Below are positions 2,839-52,844 of a DNA stretch of 64,000 nt, piece after piece; position 1 is the first letter of the stretch, and each line of letters opens with the position of its first letter. Location of the stretch: the IMG/VR virus record IMGVR_UViG_3300021399_000099, positions 128,001 to 192,000 of that record; one strand, 5' to 3'. The position numbers and the translations under genes are program-made. Below the pieces are notes generated by a model. That model was not told where the DNA came from. It worked only from the letters and a program-made list of their open reading frames with translations, and did no database searches. This DNA is from a virus (taxonomy: Duplodnaviria > Caudoviricetes).

Positions 2839-3747
2839 TTATAAACTTTTTACTTTGTTCCACTTTCTTTCTAAAAAATCGACATCATCACAAAAAGTTG
2901 CAATTTTCTTAATGTCATCTCTATTACCGATGACTAAAGCGGCCGTTCCTTTTTTTGTTATTTTTGTTGTTACTGAGGATACGCCATAGTCTCTTTTTAA
3001 AATTTCGGCAAAAAAATCAAGGTTTCCTTTCCACGAACTATGAAGTTCAATTTTAAGTTGTGGATAACCTTTTGATAACCATATGCAACCGTCTCCATCT
3101 ACAAATCCTATGAAAAAATAAACAAAATCATTTTGAAAAATCTCTAACTTTGGAGGGAAGTAGGTTTTTGCGGTTTCTTCCATACAAAGAGTTTCCCTCC
3201 AAGATTCAATCCTTGGTTTGTCATTCCCTTGTATCTTTACAAAGCCTTTATTATCTTCCTTTACTGTGACTGATAATCGTTTTGCTATTTTTTCAAGGTG
3301 TGCTCTATCAACATTTTTCAATGATATTATCAGCGTATTAGTTTTTGAAAGGTGCCCATCGGCCATAATAAATCCCCACCAATATAGACTTTCTTTTGTT
3401 AGTGCATTCAAATCTAAAAAAGACAAATCACATTTCCTACTTCGGTCTATTTTTGCCCGATATCCAAGCCAATGCGCGTGTAGTTCTATTTTTTGGTAAG
3501 TTCTCCCAGGAAACGCTTTCAGTAAGTCTTCCATGGAGTATGTTTCCCAGGCTTCTTTCAACTTTGCATTTTCTTCGGCGGTCCAACGGTCATAGTGATT
3601 TGACTTTATATGGAGAGCATCTATTTTAGCCTTTATCTGTTTTCTTGTTTTTCCCGGAAGGAGTTCAATACATTTGTAAATCCCTCCTTCCGGAAAATTT
3701 TCATAAAGAATCTGTTTTTCTTCGTCTGTCCAAGTTCTTTTACCCAT
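2839..3747 (-). CDS. free-standing LAGLIDADG homing endonuclease with N-terminal Myb-like repeats
   Basis: YWWGFIMADGH and FFIGFVDGDG motifs; WT.EE repeats. Confidence 0.8.
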   Translation of the reverse strand: MGKRTWTDEEKQILYENFPEGGIYKCIELLPGKTRKQIKAKIDALHIKSNHYDRWTAEENAKLKEAWETYSMEDLLKAFPGRTYQKIELHAHWLGYRAKIDRSRKCDLSFLDLNALTKESLYWWGFIMADGHLSKTNTLIISLKNVDRAHLEKIAKRLSVTVKEDNKGFVKIQGNDKPRIESWRETLCMEETAKTYFPPKLEIFQNDFVYFFIGFVDGDGCIWLSKGYPQLKIELHSSWKGNLDFFAEILKRDYGVSSVTTKITKKGTAALVIGNRDDIKKIATFCDDVDFLERKWNKVKSL

Positions 3748-3802: not shown

Positions 3803-5353
3803 TTAAAACTTTCCGTCATTAAGGCGATTTCTAATATCGGCAAGACTCTCTTCTTTTATCATTTTACCGTCTTTGAAAACTGTTTCCATAAGGGTGTTCT
3901 GCATTGATTCTTCCCAAGTTAAACCGTCCTTATAGGTGATTTTCTTGTTCCACTTATCTCTCCAAAACACGGCACAGCATCCCTTCTGGGACTTTTTGAA
4001 ATTACCGCCTCCGGCTTCCCTATCAGTTTTAGGGTCCTTATAGATTGGAATCTTCGTAACAACGCCATTCTTGTCTGTGAATTCAGCGTAAATCGGCTTA
4101 ATGGCCATCGAAAAAGTGTCCCTCGTGAAAGGTTTGAGCATTCCATCTTCCTCAATACAATGCATGGAGAAGGAGCCCACACCCAGAGAAACATTGTTTG
4201 CGGCGAAACCGTTTTCCTCAAGAATTCGGTAAATCTCCTCGGCTCTCTGCACTGTAATAGAATCGCCATAAAGGGCCTTTACGTGCGGATTAAGGACCTT
4301 GTAACCCTTGGAGTTAGTTGTACCTCCAAAAATCTTCCAGAGTTCAAATACGGTCTCCGTAACCACCTTTACACAGTCGCCAGAGTCACCACGGACAAGC
4401 AGGCATCCGTTATGGGCAAGGATTTCGTCTTTAAGCGTAGGAAGAATGTTCTTTACCACATTCCAGTAATCATACGAATCGGAGACGCAGCTGAACGAAG
4501 TGTTGGGGTAAAGTTCGGTAAGGGCACGCTTGATAAAGATACGCTCGCGGTGAGGGTCAATGTCGGCGTACTCGTAATCCGGGTTATCGACCGTATCCTT
4601 TGCAGAATTGGAGCACATAACGAAATGCTCGGTGGAGACGGCGCCAAAGGCAACCTCTTCCTTTTCACAGTCGCAGTTGTAATAGTGCTCGAGATAGGGT
4701 ACGACGGGAACAGTGGCGCTATTCACGAAGGACAGACACCATGCTGAACCGGCCTTAAGTGCCGCGTCAAGGCCCTGGTCGCCACGGAAATCAAAGTTAC
4801 CGAGGGCGCGACGGCGAGGTACATTATCATCGCATGTCTTGTCATACCAATAATTTACAATCTCACGGTAAGTATGACCTACGGTAGCACAGACCATAGG
4901 ATACCACATCTCAGCGGAAATCAACGACTCCAGTGCCTGACCGAGCCAAGCGAAATCCGGATGGGTGTTGGTGATACCGAAAATGGGGCAATGAATTGGA
5001 ACGATGGTACCTTCCGGCAGGGAAACTACCTCAATGGGGAGATAGCCGAGACGATGAAGGTTTCTAATCTTTCCATAGTCACAAAGGTCTTTTCCAAGGG
5101 TATTATCCATAACCCTGGCATATTCGGCGACCACTTCTTCCTCAGTCTTTTTGAAGAAGTTCTCGTTGAAGTAGTCGATGAGCCAGGTCTTGCAGAATGC
5201 CTGGAGACCAAAATTAACCACTCCGTCCCAGCGATTAACGCGGGAACTTCTGGGGGTGAAATACGATACGCTCTTCGTCATACCCGGGTCAAGCATTTCG
5301 CTATGAACTGCCTTGTAGAAATCTTTGAGTAGTAATGCGTTACAATTAAACAT
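3803..5353 (-). CDS. NAMPT-family (nicotinamide/nicotinate) phosphoribosyltransferase, Namat/PncB-like
   Basis: DFYK, FDFRG, STEH, SCVSDSYD, VRGDSGD, YGDSIT, GVGSF, KDPKTD, KKSQKG motifs. Confidence 0.9.
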   Translation of the reverse strand: MFNCNALLLKDFYKAVHSEMLDPGMTKSVSYFTPRSSRVNRWDGVVNFGLQAFCKTWLIDYFNENFFKKTEEEVVAEYARVMDNTLGKDLCDYGKIRNLHRLGYLPIEVVSLPEGTIVPIHCPIFGITNTHPDFAWLGQALESLISAEMWYPMVCATVGHTYREIVNYWYDKTCDDNVPRRRALGNFDFRGDQGLDAALKAGSAWCLSFVNSATVPVVPYLEHYYNCDCEKEEVAFGAVSTEHFVMCSNSAKDTVDNPDYEYADIDPHRERIFIKRALTELYPNTSFSCVSDSYDYWNVVKNILPTLKDEILAHNGCLLVRGDSGDCVKVVTETVFELWKIFGGTTNSKGYKVLNPHVKALYGDSITVQRAEEIYRILEENGFAANNVSLGVGSFSMHCIEEDGMLKPFTRDTFSMAIKPIYAEFTDKNGVVTKIPIYKDPKTDREAGGGNFKKSQKGCCAVFWRDKWNKKITYKDGLTWEESMQNTLMETVFKDGKMIKEESLADIRNRLNDGKF

Positions 5354-13079: not shown

Positions 13080-14303
13080 ATGGGAAAATACTTAACACTA
13101 TTTGGCACACATAGTTCTTACGAGGAATATATTGACGGACCGGATGCAATACTGCCGAACGTATCTTATTGTAAAGATGTAAAGGATGTACATTTTAATC
13201 CTGTACATCATTATTCTAAAGATTATTTAACTTTTAAAGTTATATCTGCAGGAACCATTGTTTGGAAAGCACAGAATTCCGCTTATACGACAACAATCGA
13301 ATATAGTTTAGATAGTGGGGAAACCTGGGCCGAGATTACTTCAAATACGGGGGATTCAGCACCTAGTATCTCTGTAAGTGCTGGAGATGTTGTTCAATTT
13401 AAAGGAGATAATGCAACTTATAGTTCCGGTTTTTCAAGGTGTAATTCTTTCAGTGCCTCGACAGCGAAGTTTGAAGCCGAAGGTAATATTATGTCACTTA
13501 TAGATAGTACTGGATATACAACAGCTACAACTCTTGCAAATAGTTATACATTCTATTATTTATTCCGTGAATGTACTGGTTTAACTTCTGCTGAAAATCT
13601 TGTATTACCTGCTACTACATTGGCAAACAATTGTTATCAAAATATGTTCATTCGTTGTACTGGGTTAACATCAGCACCTGAACTTCCTGCAACAACATTA
13701 GCTAATAATTGTTATGATGGTATGTTCTTTGGTTGTACAGGGCTAACATCAGCACCGGAACTTCCTGCTACTACATTGGCAACACAGTGTTATAATAATA
13801 TGTTCTATGGTTGTACAAGCCTCACAACAGCGCCCGAACTTCCTGCTACTACATTGGCAAACAATTGTTATCAAAGTATGTTCAAAGGTTGTACAAATTT
13901 AACTTCAGCGCCAGAACTTCCAACAACTACATTAGCACGTGCTTGTTATAATAGTATGTTCGGTGATTGTACATCATTAACTAAAGCACCTGAACTTCCC
14001 GCTACTACATTGGCAAGTAGTTGTTATGCGGTTATGTTCCAAGGTTGTACATCTTTAACTACCGCACCTGAATTACCCGCTACTACATTGGCAGAGAATT
14101 GTTATAGATATATGTTCAATGGTTGTACAAGTTTAAATTATATCAAGTGTCTTGCAACAGATATCTCTGCAACTGGTTGTATAACTAATTGGGTGAATGG
14201 CGTTTCATCAACAGGTACCTTCGTAAAAGCCGCCTCTATGTCATCTTGGACAACTGGCGTAGATGGTGTTCCTACAAACTGGTCAGTACAAGACGCATCG
14301 TAA
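13080..14303 (+). CDS. BspA-like leucine-rich-repeat protein
   Basis: 24-aa repeats APELPATTLA..CY..MF.GCTSLT. Confidence 0.85.
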   Translation: MGKYLTLFGTHSSYEEYIDGPDAILPNVSYCKDVKDVHFNPVHHYSKDYLTFKVISAGTIVWKAQNSAYTTTIEYSLDSGETWAEITSNTGDSAPSISVSAGDVVQFKGDNATYSSGFSRCNSFSASTAKFEAEGNIMSLIDSTGYTTATTLANSYTFYYLFRECTGLTSAENLVLPATTLANNCYQNMFIRCTGLTSAPELPATTLANNCYDGMFFGCTGLTSAPELPATTLATQCYNNMFYGCTSLTTAPELPATTLANNCYQSMFKGCTNLTSAPELPTTTLARACYNSMFGDCTSLTKAPELPATTLASSCYAVMFQGCTSLTTAPELPATTLAENCYRYMFNGCTSLNYIKCLATDISATGCITNWVNGVSSTGTFVKAASMSSWTTGVDGVPTNWSVQDAS

Positions 14304-34434: not shown

Positions 34435-34507
34435 GTGCCAGATACAGGATTCGAACCCGCATATCAACGTTTTAGGGACGCCCGCTTTACCAATCAGCTA
34501 ATCTGGC
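34435..34507 (-). tRNA. putative amber suppressor tRNA (anticodon CUA)
   Basis: full cloverleaf; anticodon arm GGCGT-CCCTAAA-ACGTT; C33 also seen in this phage's Gly(UCC) and Arg(CCU) tRNAs. Confidence 0.7.
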
Positions 34508-38883: not shown

Positions 38884-39409
38884 TGCCCAAGATGGGAGTC
38901 GAACCCATACGGCCTTTCAGGCCAAGGGATTTTACGTACCACCATAGTTTTCGCTACCAAAACAACTTTGGACATACGGGTTGGATTTTCAAGGCTTTTA
39001 CACCCCCAGGTTGTTTTGTTTGTGGTCTGGACTCTATCTTAACCATATTGAAATCTAGCTAGATACCTACAATGTAACTATGTCGTAACTGTGTTTTCAT
39101 TTTACAGCTTGCTTCCATAATATCAAGCAACTCAGCAATTTCAACTTAGGTTCCTCCTGTATAGTCTCTACACACTGTCTATTATTAATCCAAATGCTTT
39201 CACATGCAATGCAGAAGTATTTTTCCATTTGGATTATTTTAACATTGGCTCGGTATTAGCATATTAGAATTATTTACTCAAGGGATTTTACAATCCTATT
39301 CCAACTTAGCTTTCACCGAATTAGAGAGGTTCTACATCCAAGGTTTCCCCTGGTGCAACCCAAATGCTTTTTGCAGAGTCCCTCGTGTCTACCATTTCAC
39401 CACTCGGGC
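38884..39409 (-). tRNA. tRNA-Leu(UAA) split by group I intron
   Basis: exons 39377-39409 and 38884-38934 join to AGGGA-CTTAAAA-TCCCT. Confidence 0.88.
38935..39376 (-). mobile_element. group I intron (442 nt, no ORF)
   Basis: follows exon U, ends in G; R element TAGAGACTA and S element AAGATAGAGTCC. Confidence 0.85.
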
Positions 39410-41691: not shown

Positions 41692-41812
41692 AGCCGGTAG
41701 CTGGATTCGAACCAGCGACCCACGGGTTAAAAGCCATTGAGAACGTTGCTGTTGGTTTCCATGCCTGGAAGCACTTCATATACGTTGCTCTACCTGACTG
41801 AGCTATACCGGC
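41692..41812 (-). ncRNA. tRNA-Lys(UUU) with 47-nt CAGCAA-module insert at 29/30
   Basis: removing the insert restores ACGGG-CTTTTAA-CCCGT. Confidence 0.72.
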
Positions 41813-41940: not shown

Positions 41941-42013
41941 AAAGTCATGGCCATTCTTCACATCAGTACCATTTCCACTGAACCTAAGGCGTAACTAATT
42001 GAATGACCATCTG

Positions 42014-42083
42014 TTCTGTTACAGGATTCGAACCTATCCCTCCCGCTTTACCAGCGAGCGAGCTGACCAATACACCAAACAGA
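42014..42083 (-). pseudogene. atypical tRNA (loop TGGTAAA)
   Basis: cloverleaf present, anticodon register ambiguous. Confidence 0.5.
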
Positions 42084-42190
42084 TTTTACGAAGTATCGTC
42101 CCTAATTATTACTCACCTGCACGGCTTTCTTGTTCAGTATTTTCCAACGCCACCTACTAACATTGTGCAGATGCTTTCAGAATTTACTTG

Positions 42191-43474: not shown

Positions 43475-43501
43475 TTAAATGCCTGTAAATCAATAAATTT
43501 G

Positions 43502-43871
43502 TGGAGCTGACGCGACTCGAACGCGTGTCTTCAGGCATACCAATACGCTTTCTACATGCTTATTTCGGCTTAAAATCCAATAATCAAGAGCCGAGCACAA
43601 CTTGATTATCTTTCTGAATCCAATCTTCCAGACCACTTTGTTTGCAATTACACTCCCATTGGGACGGATAACAAAGAAAACAGTCCCGAGAATGTTCGTC
43701 CCGACCCTGCCTTGGGGCCGATGGATTAAGCTAACTCACCTGGTGAATTAAGCAGCGAAAGAATACGCATAAGCGTCAACTATTTTTTTGAAGTTCTGAT
43801 TAAAGTGGTTTCCTCCAATCCACTGCATGCTTACGGACCGCATATATCTGAATCAAAACCAGAACAGCCCC
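43502..43871 (-). ncRNA. ssrA: tmRNA
   Basis: 5' GGGGCTG..TGGTTTTGA, 3' GTTCGAGTCGCGTCAGCTCCA; tag frame ...DAYAYSFAA-stop. Confidence 0.92.
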
Positions 43872-44392: not shown

Positions 44393-44478
44393 CGGAGAGC
44401 GGAGGTGTCGAACCCCATACGTTTCACCGTACGAATAGTTTTCAAGACTACCTTCGGAGCCGTCCGAATTCACTCTCC
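44393..44478 (-). tRNA. tRNA-Ser(UGA)
   Basis: long variable arm. Confidence 0.82.
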
Positions 44479-45405
44479 AAGATTGTTTCGTTTTCTATAG
44501 TCAGACATTGCGTGTTTTCCAACCCCAAAATGTTTTGCTATACTTTTCCACGTTAGTCCAGTTTCCCTAAGTTTTATTACTTCGGCTTTTGAAATATTAT
44601 CAGTTTTTCTTTTTATATGTTCTTCTTTAATTTTTCTACCCTTTACCCACCCATTTTTAACATATTCTGCGAGGTCTTCCTTTTTTATTTTTAGGTTTTT
44701 TACGCCATTAGTAATCCAACATGTACCGTACTGTGAATTTTTAACACCAATTTGGTCGCCGTTTGCTCTGTGCGAATTTGACATCTTTTCTTTTGTTAAC
44801 TCGGAATGGTTTCTTCCCACCCAAACAGCTTTTAATTCCCCGTTTAAATATCTTTCATCATCAAGATTAACAGACATCGTATTGCCGCTCATATCATAAA
44901 CGGTTATTCTTCCTTTAGATTGATGAAGATACCTTTCTTGGTTATTTTTATATTCAGAGGTTTCAATAAGCTTATATTTTTCCTCTTCGGTGTCAAAAAC
45001 TGCGATTTTTCCTTTAGAAAAGGGAACATATTTTCCGGAAAGATAATCTTCATCATCCGGCTTAATCCTATAAAAAACACCATTTTCGTCTCTAACCAAG
45101 ATTGTTCCGGTGGTGACACCAAAATCACCACCAATTTTTAAGTTATAACAATTGGTATCCAAAACACAAGATTCGGTCACTACTTCATTTTCATATTCGG
45201 ATGCCTGCTCTCGTGTTTTAAAATATTTTAGGATTGTCTTTTTAAAATTTTCCTTACCAAACTGTCTATACGCCCTTTTCAATCTCCTTCCAGACCCCAT
45301 ATAGCCATCCTCAATGTCGTTTGTTGAGTGTATCCCAAAATAATAATTTCCGTTTAACTGGTTTTCAATCTTATAAAAATAATGATATTTGTAATCACGT
45401 TCCAT
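44470..45405 (-). CDS. GIY-YIG (Seg-like) homing endonuclease in tRNA array
   Basis: YFYKIEN..NGNYYFGIHS...GYMGSG, YNLKIGG, NUMOD-like repeats. Confidence 0.85.
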   Translation of the reverse strand: MERDYKYHYFYKIENQLNGNYYFGIHSTNDIEDGYMGSGRRLKRAYRQFGKENFKKTILKYFKTREQASEYENEVVTESCVLDTNCYNLKIGGDFGVTTGTILVRDENGVFYRIKPDDEDYLSGKYVPFSKGKIAVFDTEEEKYKLIETSEYKNNQERYLHQSKGRITVYDMSGNTMSVNLDDERYLNGELKAVWVGRNHSELTKEKMSNSHRANGDQIGVKNSQYGTCWITNGVKNLKIKKEDLAEYVKNGWVKGRKIKEEHIKRKTDNISKAEVIKLRETGLTWKSIAKHFGVGKHAMSDYRKRNNLGE

Positions 45406-45829: not shown

Positions 45830-45952
45830 TGCTGAGAGTTGGATTCGAACCAACGCGTGTCAATTCCGTCGCACCAGAATTGTGATAGCGGGCTTCCCCA
45901 TAGTTGCGATTCCGGGGTCCTCCGCTGTGTTCAGCCACTTCACTACCTCAGC
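45830..45952 (-). ncRNA. tRNA-like RNA with expanded anticodon and variable arms
   Basis: intact acceptor, D and T arms; loops TCGCA and TGCGA complementary. Confidence 0.6.
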
Positions 45953-46486: not shown

Positions 46487-47587
46487 TTAGTTAGCAGGGG
46501 TGCAAGGATTCAAACCCTGACCAACGGTTTTTAGTATTTCCGGCATATATTTCTTAATGAAATCCATAAGCGTTTGTCTGTTAATACCGGTAGTTTTACT
46601 TAATTTAGTTAGCCACCCTCTTTCACTAGTATCTATTCCCGCCTCTACTATTATTTTTTTTCTATTTCTTATTTTTTCTTTATCTTCTTCCTTTTTTTTA
46701 ATTTGGCTATCTTTTCTCCTCTTTACTGACTCAATAGCCTTTTCTTTCGTATAACAAGTTGCATAAAAATCTGGGTCGTTTTTCATTAAAAATTCCCTAA
46801 CATGTAATTGGGTCATTCCAACCAATTCGCCAGCTTTCTTTACCCACCCCCATTTTTGAAAATCTATCCCACTATTTTTTATAGTTTCAAGTTTTTCGGT
46901 TGTTGTTTTTATTTTTTCCTCTTCTTTTTGAATTTTTTTATTTAGCTTTTCTTCAACCTCTTTTATTATTTCCTTTGCTGTTCTTTTCTTTGCATTTTTC
47001 CCGCAATAGTTATCAGTTAAAGCATGACAGTTTGGGCATAAAATCTGTAGGTTTTCAATAGAATTGTTGGTTCTGTCTCCGTCTATGTGATGAACTTGTA
47101 GTGGTATCGGTTCCCCTTCCCATTCAACTCTTCCACATCTTTCGCACACCCTTTCTTTAATCCCAAACTTAAACAAGTAACCAGATATTCTGCTACTTGA
47201 TATTAAGCTTTCCTTTTTAAAAATATCTTCTTCTTTTAAAGAGTTTTTATGCTGGTTGCTTTTCCCCTTTCTATTAAAATGAGTGGTATCTAACCCATAT
47301 TTTTTGGCGATTTTTTTAAATTCTAAATATGTATTACTTCCTACACTCAAATTAAGCTCTTTTGCCACCTCTGAAAAATTGTTTTTTACTTTAATCAGTT
47401 CACAAACCGCTTTCTCCCTTTTTTCTTTTTCTTTTTGGTTTTGCGTAATGTGTTTTTGGTCTTCCATGAATTTTGGCGCAAGAACCAGTTTAATATATCT
47501 TTTATCCTCGTTTAAAATTTTAGAAATTTCTTCCCTTGTTTTTCCTTCATCATATAAGGCATATACCTTTTTCATTCGCTCGTTCAT
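46487..47587 (-). CDS. HNH homing endonuclease
   Basis: CERCG...LQVHHIDGDRTNN..ENLQILCPNCH. Confidence 0.88.
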   Translation of the reverse strand: MNERMKKVYALYDEGKTREEISKILNEDKRYIKLVLAPKFMEDQKHITQNQKEKEKREKAVCELIKVKNNFSEVAKELNLSVGSNTYLEFKKIAKKYGLDTTHFNRKGKSNQHKNSLKEEDIFKKESLISSSRISGYLFKFGIKERVCERCGRVEWEGEPIPLQVHHIDGDRTNNSIENLQILCPNCHALTDNYCGKNAKKRTAKEIIKEVEEKLNKKIQKEEEKIKTTTEKLETIKNSGIDFQKWGWVKKAGELVGMTQLHVREFLMKNDPDFYATCYTKEKAIESVKRRKDSQIKKKEEDKEKIRNRKKIIVEAGIDTSERGWLTKLSKTTGINRQTLMDFIKKYMPEILKTVGQGLNPCTPAN

Positions 47588-51033: not shown

Positions 51034-51128
51034 TGGGCAGGGAGGGATTCGAACCCTCTTACTGCGAAGTCCGCTACGACTATTTGTTAACGCAGATTGG
51101 TTTTACAGACCAGTGCCGTTACCTACCC
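51034..51128 (-). tRNA. D-armless tRNA-Tyr(GUA) with giant variable arm, copy 1
   Basis: GGGTAGG-TAACGGCA-CTGGT-CTGTAAA-ACCAA. Confidence 0.7.
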
Positions 51129-51141
51129 ATTTTGGTTTTTG

Positions 51142-51319
51142 CGGGGATAGCAGGGCTCGAACCTACAACCTATTGATTAAGACCCGATAAGAGGAATCGA
51201 ACCTCTGTTACCATGTGTCGTAAGACTAGGTGTCCTATACCACTAAACGATACCGAGTTGGTTAATTTCGGATAACCGCCCCGTTTCAGTCAATTGCTCT
51301 ACCATTGAGCTATATCCCC
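51142..51319 (-). tRNA. tRNA-Asn(GUU) with 106-nt intron containing nested tRNA-like domain
   Basis: exons rejoin to ATTGA-CTGTTAA-TCAAT; intron 51181-51286. Confidence 0.75.
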
Positions 51320-51327
51320 ATTGTTTG

Positions 51328-51411
51328 CGTTTGGTGCAGGATTCGAACCTACGGTGTTCTTCACACGGCACATTAACAGTGTGCTGCCTTAAACCACTCG
51401 GCCAACCAAAC
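51328..51411 (-). tRNA. tRNA-Asn(GUU) with long variable arm
   Basis: GCACA-CTGTTAA-TGTGC. Confidence 0.82.
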
Positions 51412-51418
51412 ATATTTG

Positions 51419-51497
51419 TCGCGAAGACTGGACTCGAACCAGCATCCCCCTGCCTCCTATGCAGGCCGCTTACAAAAACCAATTAGCGTACTTCGCG
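51419..51497 (-). tRNA. tRNA-Pro(AGG)
   Basis: CCTGC-ATAGGAG-GCAGG. Confidence 0.75.
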
Positions 51498-51509
51498 TTA
51501 TATTTTATG

Positions 51510-51581
51510 AGCCCCTTGTCGGAATCGAACCAACATCTAGGCGTTACGAATGCCTTATAATAGCCGTTATACTAAAAGGGC
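51510..51581 (-). tRNA. tRNA-Thr(CGU)
   Basis: loop TTCGTAA. Confidence 0.8.
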
Positions 51582-51684
51582 ATATAATGATAACCGTAGT
51601 TGGGTTTGTCAAAGTACCTTTATCTGCCATATTCTCAAGAGCCCAACCTTGTGGCATTGATTATGTACATGCAGTTATCATTTG

Positions 51685-51757
51685 TGGCGGTAACCGGAGT
51701 CGAACCGATATCTGGTGGGTCAAAGCCACCCATACTCAGCCTTTGTACGATACCGCT
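51685..51757 (-). tRNA. tRNA-Gln(UUG)
   Basis: GGTGG-CTTTGAC-CCACC. Confidence 0.8.
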
Positions 51758-51758
51758 G

Positions 51759-51832
51759 TGGACACATGTGGGATTCGAACCCCTCCTTCACAGTGCAAGT
51801 GTGAGGTGCTACCAAGTTACACTACACGGCCC
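51759..51832 (-). tRNA. tRNA-Ala(UGC)
   Basis: TCACA-CTTGCAC-TGTGA. Confidence 0.75.
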
Positions 51833-51936
51833 ATATTTGTGGAACTTACGGATTCGAACCGCCTGTTATCGGGTCTTCCCTCGTTATTTCACCCCGTGAG
51901 CATCCGCCCCCAACTGGCTTTAAGTCCCATATTTTG

Positions 51937-52031
51937 TGGGAGAGGTGAGACTCGAACTCACTTACCGCGAAGGCCAATACGGCTATTTGGTGACGCGGGT
52001 TGGTTTTACAGACCAGTGCCGTTACTCTCCC
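51937..52031 (-). tRNA. D-armless tRNA-Tyr(GUA) with giant variable arm, copy 2
   Basis: same 95-nt architecture as 51034-51128 with compensatory changes. Confidence 0.7.
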
Positions 52032-52039
52032 ATAATTTG

Positions 52040-52224
52040 TGGCTCCGAAGAGGATTCGAACCTCCATTCAGACAGTAGCCTTCCGGATTGGCACTTGTCC
52101 CTGTGTTTATTCTTGCGCCCAACCTTTGGCAGCTCGCGACACTGTTGTTCCTCACTGTCAGGTAACCCCTATTACACACTTCCCTCACCATGCAAGGGCG
52201 ACTTTACCGTTTGTCTATCAAGCC
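52040..52224 (-). ncRNA. tRNA-like RNA with about 110-nt variable-region insert
   Basis: acceptor, D-arm and T-arm recognisable. Confidence 0.55.
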
Positions 52225-52231
52225 ATATTTG

Positions 52232-52731: not shown

Positions 52732-52844
52732 TGGAGATAGATGGCATCGAACCATCACCCGTTATTTTTTCTCAGATTTGTACTCTGACCGAACTTGCAG
52801 CTTTCGCCTTGGGCCCGCACTCTGCCATATTGAGCTATATCCCC
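52732..52844 (-). ncRNA. Ala-acceptor (G3:U70) tRNA-like RNA without a normal anticodon arm
   Basis: GGGGATA/TATCTCC acceptor; multi-hairpin centre. Confidence 0.55.

Follow-up and report, generated by a model that had tools for sequence, protein, structure and literature searches.

The locus raises the question of whether a tRNA gene with no D hairpin ahead of its anticodon arm, and with an outsized variable region behind it, is a damaged gene, a D-armless tRNA or a tRNA of another design. Two such genes are found in the window studied here, a stretch of 64,000 nt from the jumbo phage record IMGVR_UViG_3300021399_000099 (positions 128,001 to 192,000 of that record). To our knowledge, the cloverleaf is treated as universal outside mitochondria. 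The two genes represent a conserved non-cloverleaf design of tRNA-Tyr that is overlooked by gene finders, and, as judged from sequence, both are probably decoding tRNA-Tyr molecules with a rewired core. No published description of such pseudoknotted, rewired tRNAs was found in a literature search.

Organization of the two genes

Both tRNA-Tyr(GUA) genes are 95 nt long and are located on the minus strand, copy A at 51034-51128 and copy B at 51937-52031, in the same orientation within a 48-gene tRNA array. Their flanks match those of the ordinary tRNAs of the array (..AAU/UAU leader and N73-C-A/U-A trailer). CCA is not encoded in copy A, in which A73 (51034) is followed by the trailer C-U-A; in copy B the trailer after A73 (51937) is C-A-A.

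The acceptor 5' strand of copy A, GGGUAGG (51122-51128), forms 7/7 pairs with 51035-51041. U8 and A9 come next, followed by the motif ACGGC (51115-51119), A26 and the anticodon stem. Family covariation pairs this ACGGC, the 3' strand of the D stem (positions 21-25), with 51076-51080. The anticodon arm CUGGU-CUGUAAA-ACCAA (51097-51113), the stem of which covaries in the family, carries GUA at 51104-51106. The closing stem of the variable arm is formed by CUGCG (51091-51095) and CGCAG (51062-51066), again with family covariation, and encloses an A-rich linker, UUAACAAAUA (51081-51090), the relocated 5' strand of the D stem, GUCGU (51076-51080; positions 10-13 plus a U), and a D-loop remnant, AGCGGACUU (51067-51075), that contains A14 and the family-conserved G18 G19. 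The T arm is GAGGG-UUCGAAU-CCCUC (51042-51058). In copy B, ACGGC (52018-52022) forms five Watson-Crick pairs with GCCGU (51979-51983), which is followed by AUUGG (A14, G18 G19); the closing stem pairs CCGCG (51994-51998) with CGCGG (51965-51969), in which C-G compensates for the U-A pair of copy A, and the anticodon is at 52007-52009.

Counted along the RNA, both copies start with the acceptor strand at 1-7 (GGGUAGG in A, GGGAGAG in B), U8 and A9, ACGGC at 10-14 and A15. The anticodon stem CUGGU/ACCAA has a C.A mismatch at its top, and the loop is CUGUAAA. A single nucleotide separates the anticodon arm from the closing stem, the loop enclosed by that stem is 24 nt long, and the whole variable insert measures 35 nt. 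It is followed by UAA, the T arm (GUGAG-UUCGAGU-CUCAC in B), the acceptor 3' strand and A73. This is the layout that had been described at the outset, with ACGGC in place of the D arm, a Tyr anticodon arm and a covarying arm before the T arm. Between the copies, six base pairs have changed in a compensatory manner, of which three belong to the acceptor stem, two to the T stem and one to the closing stem; a further change is from G.U to G-C, and no pair is broken.

Both copies have the 7-bp acceptor stem of a tRNA, a 5-bp T stem with a UUCRANY loop, and an anticodon arm of 5 bp and a 7-nt loop in which U33 and a purine at 37 are present. GUA, A73, G1-C72 and a long variable arm with its own covarying 5-bp stem are those of bacterial class II tRNA-Tyr. 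A cloverleaf has a D hairpin (10-13/22-25, loop 14-21) between 9 and 26; here only 5 nt lie between U8A9 and A26. The Rfam tRNA model RF00005 (gathering score 29) is matched over its full length (1-71) by copy A with 33.5 bits and by copy B with 31.4 bits, and in both the match requires deletion of the D arm (15 model positions) and a 35-nt insertion in the variable region. ARAGORN overlooks both copies.

Conserved structure

Evidence for the fold comes from an alignment of 49 distinct homologues, made without structural input. The long-range helix between ACGGC and GYCGU (columns 10-14 with 49-53) pairs in 245 of 245 cells, and compensatory double changes occur at four of its five pairs, distributed over 12 haplotypes. 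These include ACGGC/GUCGU, ACGGC/GCCGU, ACAGC/GCUGU, ACAUC/GAUGU, ACACC/GGUGU and ACGAA/UUCGU, and further ACGUC/GGCGU, ACAAC/GUUGU, ACCGA/UCGGU, AUCGC/GCGAU, ACGGU/AUCGU and others. Among the 49 homologues, columns 11-52 are CG in 48 and UA in 1; 12-51 are GC in 36, AU in 11 and CG in 2; 13-50 are GU in 28, GC in 9, CG in 5, AU in 3, and UA and UG in 2 each; and 14-49 are CG in 43, AU in 4, and UA and UG in 1 each. Neither the pairing score nor the covariation score was equalled by any of 500 shuffles, slid controls paired in 19-63% of cells, and the long-range pairs rank among the top mutual-information pairs, beside the classical stems. The original prediction held that ACGGC pairs with GTCGT or GCCGT inside the insert to give a pseudoknotted tRNA, and named lack of covariation in this pairing as the observation that would count against it; the pairing is confirmed and does covary.

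In the closing stem (family columns 34-37 with 66-69), 99.5% of cells are paired and covariation is seen at two pairs. Since this variable stem covaries as well as the long-range helix, the two together make the fold a true pseudoknot. All seven pairs of the acceptor stem covary, as does the anticodon stem, and 96-100% of cells are paired in the acceptor, T and anticodon helices. Over all helices of the family 98.3% of cells are paired, and 21 of the 26 pairs show double changes. Four ordinary helices and the long-range D helix are supported by covariation in this way, and a genuine pseudoknotted structure maintained by selection is close to certain. Positions 21-25 are represented by the 5' ACGGC, and the insert supplies 10-13, A14 and G18G19. 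The description of the genes as D-armless, with which the analysis began, has to be replaced: the tRNA is rewired, its 5-bp D helix covaries, and A14 and GG follow the relocated strand. A local hairpin within the insert (GUC..GAC in A, GCC..GGC in B) was considered and rejected, since no more than 73% of its cells pair, and in 29 of the 49 homologues its middle pair does not form. Nested minimum-free-energy folds, a method that cannot represent a pseudoknot, give insert structures that differ between copies A and B. No convincing covariation beyond the helices was seen for extra tertiary pairs (15-48, 26-44) in the mutual-information scan.

All family members have 7/5 acceptor-T geometry, a T loop of the form UUCRANU, and invariant U33 and A37. 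U8 and A9 are each found in 49/49, A73 in 48/49 and G1-C72 in 39/49, and in the D-loop remnant column 58 is G in 49/49 and column 59 in 46/49. In bacteria, tyrosine identity is set by A73, U35 and G1-C72 (PMC9976931); nine of the 49 members carry C1-G72 and so depart from this set at the 1-72 pair. The search patterns fixed CUGUAAA, CAAAU, A14 and the T loop, so the conservation of these elements is partly by construction; the D strands were free in one pattern and largely free in another, and one pattern did not require the GG.

Family and distribution

The family is defined by a dedicated covariance model, R1, in the order acceptor, UA, positions 21-25, 26, anticodon arm, variable stem 5' strand, linker, positions 10-13, A14 to GG, variable stem 3' strand and T arm. 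Copies A and B score 104.6 and 100.1 bits with R1, the 81 members score 80-111 bits, and ordinary tRNAs reach at most 42 bits. It comprises at least 81 genes, with 50 distinct sequences, on IMG/VR phage contigs of 88-640 kb. All 81 members are overlooked by ARAGORN.

The cultured Bacteroides phage crAss001 is a member of the family. Its rewired gene, at 4141-4235 of MH675552.1, occupies an unannotated gap between tRNA-Lys and tRNA-Phe, in an array with no annotated tRNA-Tyr, and 31 GenBank crAss-like genomes likewise leave the rewired gene unannotated. When the anticodon was left free in a pattern scan of IMG/VR, every true match had GUA, and no other isotype or suppressor was found in the Tyr-type layout; three further matches (L074-L076) are random coding-sequence matches and not family members. 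No family member was found among prokaryotes in a strict pattern scan of one genome for each of 185,579 species, where 8/8 matches were random, with acceptor and T arm absent. Covariance-model searches of samples of 5 and then 151 Bacteroidota genomes gave nothing above the level of ordinary tRNAs.

A second rewired family, with the anticodon UAU, is represented on at least 118 contigs; this phage has one copy of it, at another locus. Relatives with the same pseudoknot core but without an anticodon arm occur at four loci (L022, L037, L007 and L017), which implies that the core can serve RNAs unable to decode.

Array context and other tRNA-Tyr genes

The array had been described as lacking a canonical tRNA-Tyr. 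This is correct in that no class II tRNA-Tyr was found in the whole 216,910-bp record, but ARAGORN calls a 72-nt GUA tRNA at 42013-42084. That gene is aberrant, with no long variable arm, G33 for U33, an A1.A72 mismatch and a poor D stem. Several other genes of the array hold large insertions, and group I intron-like and homing-endonuclease sequences are also present in it. A tyrosyl-tRNA synthetase (TyrRS; PF00579) was not found in the phage record, which is 61% complete.

Elsewhere, the rewired gene of locus L029 adjoins a canonical class II tRNA-Tyr (3539-3621), and at locus L035 the acceptor and T stems of the rewired gene are identical to those of the adjoining canonical tRNA-Tyr (14081-14170). 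In all, 5 of 12 other large arrays with a rewired gene have a canonical class II tRNA-Tyr, so the rewired gene is not simply the sole supply of tRNA-Tyr and may have another role. ARAGORN calls a tRNA-Tyr in 6 of 13 dereplicated loci with at least 15 tRNAs each, compared with 7-13 loci for other amino acids; as the loci are truncated, these counts give no firm backing to the idea that the rewired gene fills a Tyr gap. At locus L031, CCA is encoded in 9/9 ordinary tRNAs and in the rewired gene as well. The crAss001 array is represented in contigs from five RNA-seq runs of two studies, with no spliced joint, although these contigs may derive from DNA.

Comparison with known RNAs

The closest likeness is to class II tRNA-Tyr(GUA), with which the rewired genes share the CUGUAAA loop, A73, mostly G1-C72, the 7-bp acceptor stem, the 5-bp T stem, a long variable arm and a place in phage tRNA arrays. 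They differ in having no D hairpin between 9 and 26 and in holding the D-stem 5' strand and A14 to G18G19 inside the variable-arm loop, which makes the molecule a pseudoknot and not a cloverleaf. With about 35-38 nt, their variable region is longer than that of class II tRNA-Tyr (about 13-20 nt), and only in the rewired genes is the 24-nt loop of the variable arm engaged in the D helix. In Cyanidioschyzon merolae, whole tRNA genes are circularly permuted, and processing through a circular RNA restores the normal cloverleaf. The segment order of those genes also differs from that of the canonical molecule, but the rewired genes displace only positions 10-20, and permutation cannot restore their normal order.

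D-armless mitochondrial tRNAs, such as nematode mt-tRNAs and mammalian mt-tRNA-Ser(AGY) (PMC7609411), likewise have no D hairpin 5' of the anticodon arm and few nucleotides between the acceptor and anticodon stems. In them both the D helix and the elbow contact through G18G19 are missing, and adapted mitochondrial factors are needed, whereas the rewired tRNAs occur in a bacterial-cell setting and keep A14, GG and a covarying 5-bp D helix, provided from the 3' side. Allo-tRNAs and the bacterial and phage (8/4) tRNA-Ser/His (Mukai et al., PMC5389517) are also non-standard, were found by metagenome mining, partly in phage tRNA clusters, and have long variable arms. They are still cloverleaves, with 8/4 or 9/3 acceptor/T stems, while the rewired family keeps 7/5 throughout and changes the topology instead. 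The tRNA-like structure of bromoviruses, BMV TLS-Tyr, is another viral non-cloverleaf RNA that offers A73 and anticodon-like nucleotides to TyrRS (PMC9976931). It is 3'-terminal in the genome of a plant RNA virus, has another architecture, is not L-shaped when free, has no decoding role, and shows no sequence or topological relation to the rewired family.

Proposed fold and function

In the proposed fold, positions 10-20 of a class II tRNA (the D-stem 5' strand and the first half of the D loop) would have moved into the loop of the long variable arm. U8-A9 would lead directly to A21-C22-G23-G24-C25, A26 and the anticodon stem; the anticodon arm in turn would be followed by the 5' strand of the 5-bp variable stem, the 10-nt A-rich linker, G10-Y11-C12-G13-U, A14 to G18G19 and the 3' strand of the variable stem. 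G10-Y11-C12-G13-U would pair back to 21-25, and the D stem would be one helix of a pseudoknot. By analogy with the textbook tRNA core, the L shape may survive, with the D stem still stacked on the anticodon stem and with U8, A14, A21 and G18G19 still available to build the core triple and the elbow. Where the chain takes its three new paths, from 9 to 21, from the variable arm to 10 and from 20 back to the variable arm, it would link residues that lie next to each other in the canonical core. The RNA would presumably be excised from the array transcript like the neighbouring tRNAs and receive CCA; host TyrRS would then charge it through A73, G1-C72 and G34-U35, and the charged RNA would read UAY codons. 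We infer the L shape, processing, charging and ribosomal use in this way. Identity elements, flanks and array context, all read from the DNA, are consistent with a working tRNA-Tyr.

The chances appear evenly balanced that phages, crAss001 included, use a class of working non-cloverleaf tRNAs run by unmodified bacterial machinery. Such a class would comprise at least Tyr(GUA) and UAU (probably Ile), and its pseudoknot core would result from the 5' half of the D arm having been transposed to a place 3' of the anticodon arm. If these RNAs work with bacterial RNase P, CCA-adding enzyme, TyrRS, EF-Tu and ribosomes, they show which part of tRNA topology is dispensable and offer a ready, orthogonal-looking scaffold for genetic-code engineering. 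Phage tRNA inventories, and the arguments on codon usage and host defence that rest on them, would then be systematically incomplete. Since crAss001 and its host are both in culture, the question can be put to a direct test.

Two other functions have to be weighed against, or beside, decoding. The RNAs could be tRNA mimics outside translation, that is, decoys or sponges for a nuclease, a modification enzyme or TyrRS, or primers or regulators, in which the tRNA-like acceptor-T arm and anticodon loop are retained solely for recognition. We regard this as rather unlikely. The same core is found in relatives without an anticodon arm, many phages hold a canonical tRNA-Tyr beside the rewired gene, host systems that degrade tRNA-Tyr are known (retron Eco7 PtuAB; PMC11555353), and the plant-virus TLS-Tyr is tyrosylated in a non-tRNA fold without decoding (PMC9976931). 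A decoy, however, would need no exact 7/5 geometry, A73, U8/A14/G18G19, standard anticodon arm or tRNA-like flanks; no further credible tRNA-Tyr accompanies the rewired genes of crAss001 and this phage, whose arrays are nonetheless nearly complete, and the L031 gene obeys the CCA-encoding convention of its genome. An explanation compatible with decoding, raised with the original prediction, is that the design is kept because it lets the tRNA elude host defences which cleave or bind tRNA-Tyr, the relocated D arm altering the surface read by the nuclease while sparing what TyrRS and the ribosome require. The tRNA-Tyr of phage T5 rescues infection from retron Eco7, and a tRNA-Lys does so from PARIS (PMC11555353, PMC11464382); among the sequences searched, the family was found only in viral contigs, and a coexisting canonical gene would suit a resistant spare. 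Anticodon nucleases usually attack the anticodon stem-loop, however, and this is unaltered (CUGUAAA); the same rewiring with UAU on at least 118 contigs indicates a cause that is not specific to tyrosine, which weakens evasion of a Tyr-specific nuclease, as does the canonical tRNA-Tyr retained in about half of the other large arrays. Escape is a possible but doubtful reason for the design.

Were the 35-nt insert an intervening sequence that is removed, the product would be a short D-armless tRNA or a cloverleaf at the RNA level, and the insertions in other genes of the array, together with its intron-like and endonuclease sequences, would be in keeping with this. The insert, however, contains the only A14/G18G19 motif of the molecule and covaries with the upstream ACGGC, which means that it works in the same folded RNA. 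No cut-and-join reaction or circular permutation restores the canonical order, because both acceptor strands are already terminal, and the RNA-library contigs of the two studies hold the unspliced form only, although such contigs drop rare forms. Removal of the insert is considered very improbable. Still less credence, practically none, is given to decaying tRNA pseudogenes or chance resemblance. The lack of an ARAGORN call and Rfam scores barely above threshold would be expected of such genes, but the R1 scores of the 81 members lie well clear of those of ordinary tRNAs, the helices are paired and doubly changed throughout the family, and the two copies themselves are separated by six compensatory changes. 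A pseudogene or chance match is refuted by this covariation.

Genomic context

The source record is a linear IMG/VR virus sequence of 216,910 bp, of which the window covers bases 128001-192000. Because this length corresponds to an estimated completeness of 61% (CheckV), the window is part of a jumbo phage. A minus-strand tRNA array occupies window positions 34-55 kb, with 48 genes including a tmRNA called by ARAGORN, about 10 additional tRNA-like matches in Rfam, and homing-endonuclease ORFs interspersed among the tRNA genes. A group I intron match (weak, 31 bits, sub-threshold) and GIY-YIG and HNH homing-endonuclease ORFs lie within the array at 39019-39386, 44470-45405 and 46487-47587 (all minus strand). 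The array also contains an amber-reading tRNA with the anticodon CUA (34435-34507, minus; labelled Pyl by ARAGORN), an Rfam tRNA-Sec match barely over threshold (44393-44479, minus; 49.5 vs 47 bits) and the phage-encoded tmRNA (43501-43871, minus; 106.7 bits, tag DAYAYSFAA); stop-codon recoding in the phage is a possibility. Rfam tRNA matches of 113-131 nt at 41692-41812, 45830-45952, 51186-51316 and 52732-52844 (all minus) carry large insertions of ~38-50 nt, some of which fall within or close to the anticodon loop; insertions this short are unusual in bacterial or phage tRNAs.

Structure of the two genes

The tRNA-Tyr(GUA) genes copy A (51034-51128) and copy B (51937-52031) are located on the minus strand and are 95 nt long. 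In both, a 7-bp acceptor stem, U8 and A9, ACGGC and A lead into the anticodon arm, in which CUGUAAA (anticodon GUA) forms the loop and the 5-bp stem is topped by a C.A mismatch. One nucleotide further on, a 5-bp closing stem is built from CUGCG/CGCAG in copy A and from CCGCG/CGCGG in copy B; its 24-nt loop holds GUCGU in A and GCCGU in B. Both genes then continue with UAA and a standard T arm and finish with the 3' strand of the acceptor stem and A73. The original prediction describes them accurately. Copies A and B differ by 6 compensatory base-pair substitutions (acceptor stem 3, T stem 2, closing stem 1) and a further change of G.U to G-C, with 0 pairs broken, a pattern characteristic of RNA genes whose structure is under selection. 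The Rfam tRNA model scores copy A at 33.5 and copy B at 31.4 bits (gathering score 29), with a fit that needs a D-arm deletion and a 35-nt variable-region insertion, and ARAGORN called neither copy. The segments at 51836-51932 (minus, between tRNA-Ala and copy B) and 52042-52229 (minus, between copy B and tRNA-Glu) each contain a GGUUCGAAUCC T arm and are closed by an acceptor-like helix; neither is called by ARAGORN or Rfam, and the nested fold of 51836-51932 is no better than that of shuffles (z = -0.41).

Distribution of the family

Deposited phage genomes yielded one relative of copy A by blastn, in Bajarodcaudo virus 1, and degenerate pattern scans of IMG/VR yielded many further members. 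The covariance model R1, built from the pattern-scan members, recovered 81 genes in 87 loci at 80-111 bits, against at most 42 bits for ordinary tRNAs. With scores of 104.6 and 100.1 bits, copies A and B are the sole members in this phage record. Members reside on contigs of 88 to 640 kb. Among the carriers is crAss001, a Bacteroides phage in culture, with its gene at 4141-4235 of MH675552.1, in an unannotated gap between tRNA-Lys and tRNA-Phe of an array for which no Tyr is annotated. The gene is unannotated in 31 of the 31 GenBank crAss-like records containing it, and ARAGORN calls none of the family members. GUA is found in every true match even when the anticodon is unconstrained in the pattern. 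A pattern scan of cellular genomes (one per species, 185,579 prokaryote species) gave 8 matches, all random, and a search of 151 sampled Bacteroidota genomes with the covariance model recovered no member; the family is almost exclusively, not strictly, viral. At locus L035 (14081-14450, plus) a canonical class II Tyr gene lies on either side of a rewired one, and in the L101 tandem (3930-4311, minus) a canonical and a rewired gene are joined by a third gene, also rewired and Tyr-like, with the 6-nt loop ACGUAA.

The long-range D helix

Forty-nine distinct members were aligned with MAFFT, blind to structure, and the proposed pairs were then counted. The search patterns fixed CUGUAAA, CAAAU, A14 and the T loop, the conservation of which is partly by construction; the D strands were unconstrained in one pattern scan and unconstrained at all but one position in another. 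ACGGC and GYCGU (alignment columns 10-14 with 49-53) are paired in 245 of 245 cells, and 4 of the 5 pairs show two-sided changes: pair 12-51 is GC in 36, AU in 11 and CG in 2 members; 13-50 is GU in 28, GC in 9, CG in 5, AU in 3, UA in 2 and UG in 2; 14-49 is CG in 43, AU in 4, UA in 1 and UG in 1; and 11-52 is CG in 48 and UA in 1. None of 500 shuffles matched the observed pairing or covariation score, and pairing fell to 19-63% when the partner strand was shifted 1-3 columns. At least 12 strand haplotypes occur, every one fully complementary, and two divergent members outside the alignment pair too (L102, CCGCC/GGUGG; L105, ACGU(U)C/GACGU). By mutual information, the long-range pairs fall in the top ranks alongside the classical stems. 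In the variable arm, 99.5% of the closing-stem cells pair, with covariation in two pairs of the stem. A local hairpin within the insert was rejected (73% of cells paired, middle pair broken in 29 of 49 members). The proposal that ACGGC and GYCGU form a D stem by pairing into the variable insert is thus upheld by strong covariation in 49 members. Because the long-range helix has one strand outside the closing stem and the other within the loop of that stem, the predicted fold is a genuine pseudoknot, and the covariation makes it almost certain that this structure is real.

The stretch U8-A9-ACGGC-A-anticodon stem reads exactly as a canonical tRNA minus positions 10-20, with A21, C22-G23-G24-C25 and A26 continuing straight into position 27. 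After the relocated strand G10-Y11-C12-G13-U comes A-N-N-G-G, which corresponds to the beginning of a D loop (A14..G18G19; G in 49/49 and 46/49 sequences at the GG columns), and the canonical G10-C25 and Y11-R24 are kept. Segment 10-20 is transposed from between 9 and 21 into the variable-arm loop. The molecule had been termed D-armless; this description fails, since the D strand 10-13 and A14..G18G19 are present and only displaced. In the core of tRNA, U8-A14-A21, 9-23-12, 45-10-25 and 46-22-13 form triples, G18 and G19 contact the T loop, and the D stem stacks on the anticodon stem. On this textbook core the three new chain junctions would link residues that are adjacent in the L-shaped fold, which makes an ordinary L shape plausible.

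Relation to known tRNAs

Class II tRNA-Tyr of bacteria and phages comes closest: anticodon, discriminator, arm lengths and the long variable arm are common to it and the rewired genes, but it possesses a D hairpin that the latter lack. In permuted tRNA genes, processing restores the cloverleaf, whereas in the rewired genes it could not. The D helix is absent altogether from mitochondrial D-armless tRNAs (PMC7609411) but present here; allo-tRNAs and 8/4 tRNAs have altered arm lengths and are still cloverleaves (PMC5389517); and the plant-virus TLS-Tyr, which is tyrosylated and non-decoding (PMC9976931), is built differently. Both copies are members of a class of pseudoknotted tRNAs that is conserved and almost exclusively viral. 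No published description of such a tRNA was found in the literature; the class is apparently undescribed so far, and is accessible to experiment in crAss001.

Probable decoding capacity

Both window copies have the full set of bacterial tyrosine identity elements, A73, U35 and G1-C72 (PMC9976931). A73 is found in 48 of 49 family members, and U8 and A9 are invariant. The 7/5 acceptor-T geometry, an EF-Tu requirement, is likewise invariant across the family. Copies A and B are oriented as the ordinary array tRNAs, and rewired and ordinary array tRNAs have common flanks (..AAU/UAU leader, N73-C-A/U-A trailer). CCA is encoded by the rewired tRNA-Tyr of a 440-kb phage contig (L031, 1730-1822, plus) and by 9/9 ordinary tRNAs of its fetched array; outside this contig neither kind encodes it. 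At L035 the acceptor and T stems are identical between the rewired gene and the adjoining canonical tRNA-Tyr. The suggestion that no canonical tRNA-Tyr accompanies the two copies holds for class II, of which none is present in the record, but an aberrant 72-nt tRNA-Tyr(GUA), the sole other GUA gene, is called by ARAGORN at 42013-42084 (minus; Rfam 34.6 bits). It lacks a long variable arm, its D stem is weak, A1 and A72 are mismatched and G33 replaces U33; it is not a credible bacterial-type tRNA-Tyr. In two studies, assembled RNA-seq contigs cover the crAss001 array with the gene in it; these contigs lack ends and strand and may reflect DNA carry-over, and they contain no spliced joint. No TyrRS is encoded in the phage record (61% complete).

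Related tRNA-like genes share the pseudoknot core but have no anticodon arm (81-83 nt; L022 1289-1371, L037 1234-1316 and L007 3772-3852, all minus, and L017 7438-7518, plus). Their core is ACGGC/GCCGU or UCCCA/UGGGG, the variable stem is CUGC/GCAG or CUAC/GUAG, and the acceptor and T arms covary. Having only 8-9 unpaired nucleotides at the anticodon-arm site, they cannot decode, and the core can therefore serve non-decoding RNAs. On balance, the rewired genes may well be decoding tRNA-Tyr.

Possible nuclease evasion and a second rewired family

A canonical class II Tyr gene is also found in 5 of 12 other large arrays, often directly adjoining the rewired gene, which is therefore not merely a replacement. 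Escape from host systems that destroy tRNA-Tyr is a reasonable hypothesis for the design. Such systems are known and can be countered by phage tRNAs, as in retron Eco7 PtuAB versus T5 tRNA-Tyr (PMC11555353); a coexisting canonical copy would be consistent with such escape. However, the anticodon stem-loop of the rewired genes is unaltered, and a family with the anticodon UAU is rewired alike, which speaks against a Tyr-specific account.

The weaker R1 matches led to this second family (loop CUUAUAC, A73, without variable stem), which is probably Ile (for AUA) and was found by pattern scan in at least 118 IMG/VR contigs. The genes (75-79 nt) consist of acceptor, UA, U-CNN-C and a 4-5 bp stem with the CUUAUAC loop, then a short linker, NNG-UA(A/G)NUGG, T arm and A73. 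A 3-bp long-range D helix is present in 63 of 63 parsed distinct members, with six covarying haplotypes (CUC/GAG, CCC/GGG, CGC/GCG, CGU/ACG, CGG/CCG and UCC/GGA). One copy lies in the same phage outside the window (G000:C1:54882-54958, plus; equal to L108 1501-1577), and further genes are located at L069 3401-3479, L026 9547-9625, L017 11664-11742, L105 8489-8567 and in loci L117-L234; ARAGORN missed all members tested. An 81-nt tRNA-like gene at L041 (8200-8280, plus) has the loop CUUCGAA with anticodon UCG (Arg), UA-AUAGC at the place of the D arm and GUAUAAUUGG downstream; only ~3 weak D pairs can be drawn, and it is possibly a rewired Arg tRNA.
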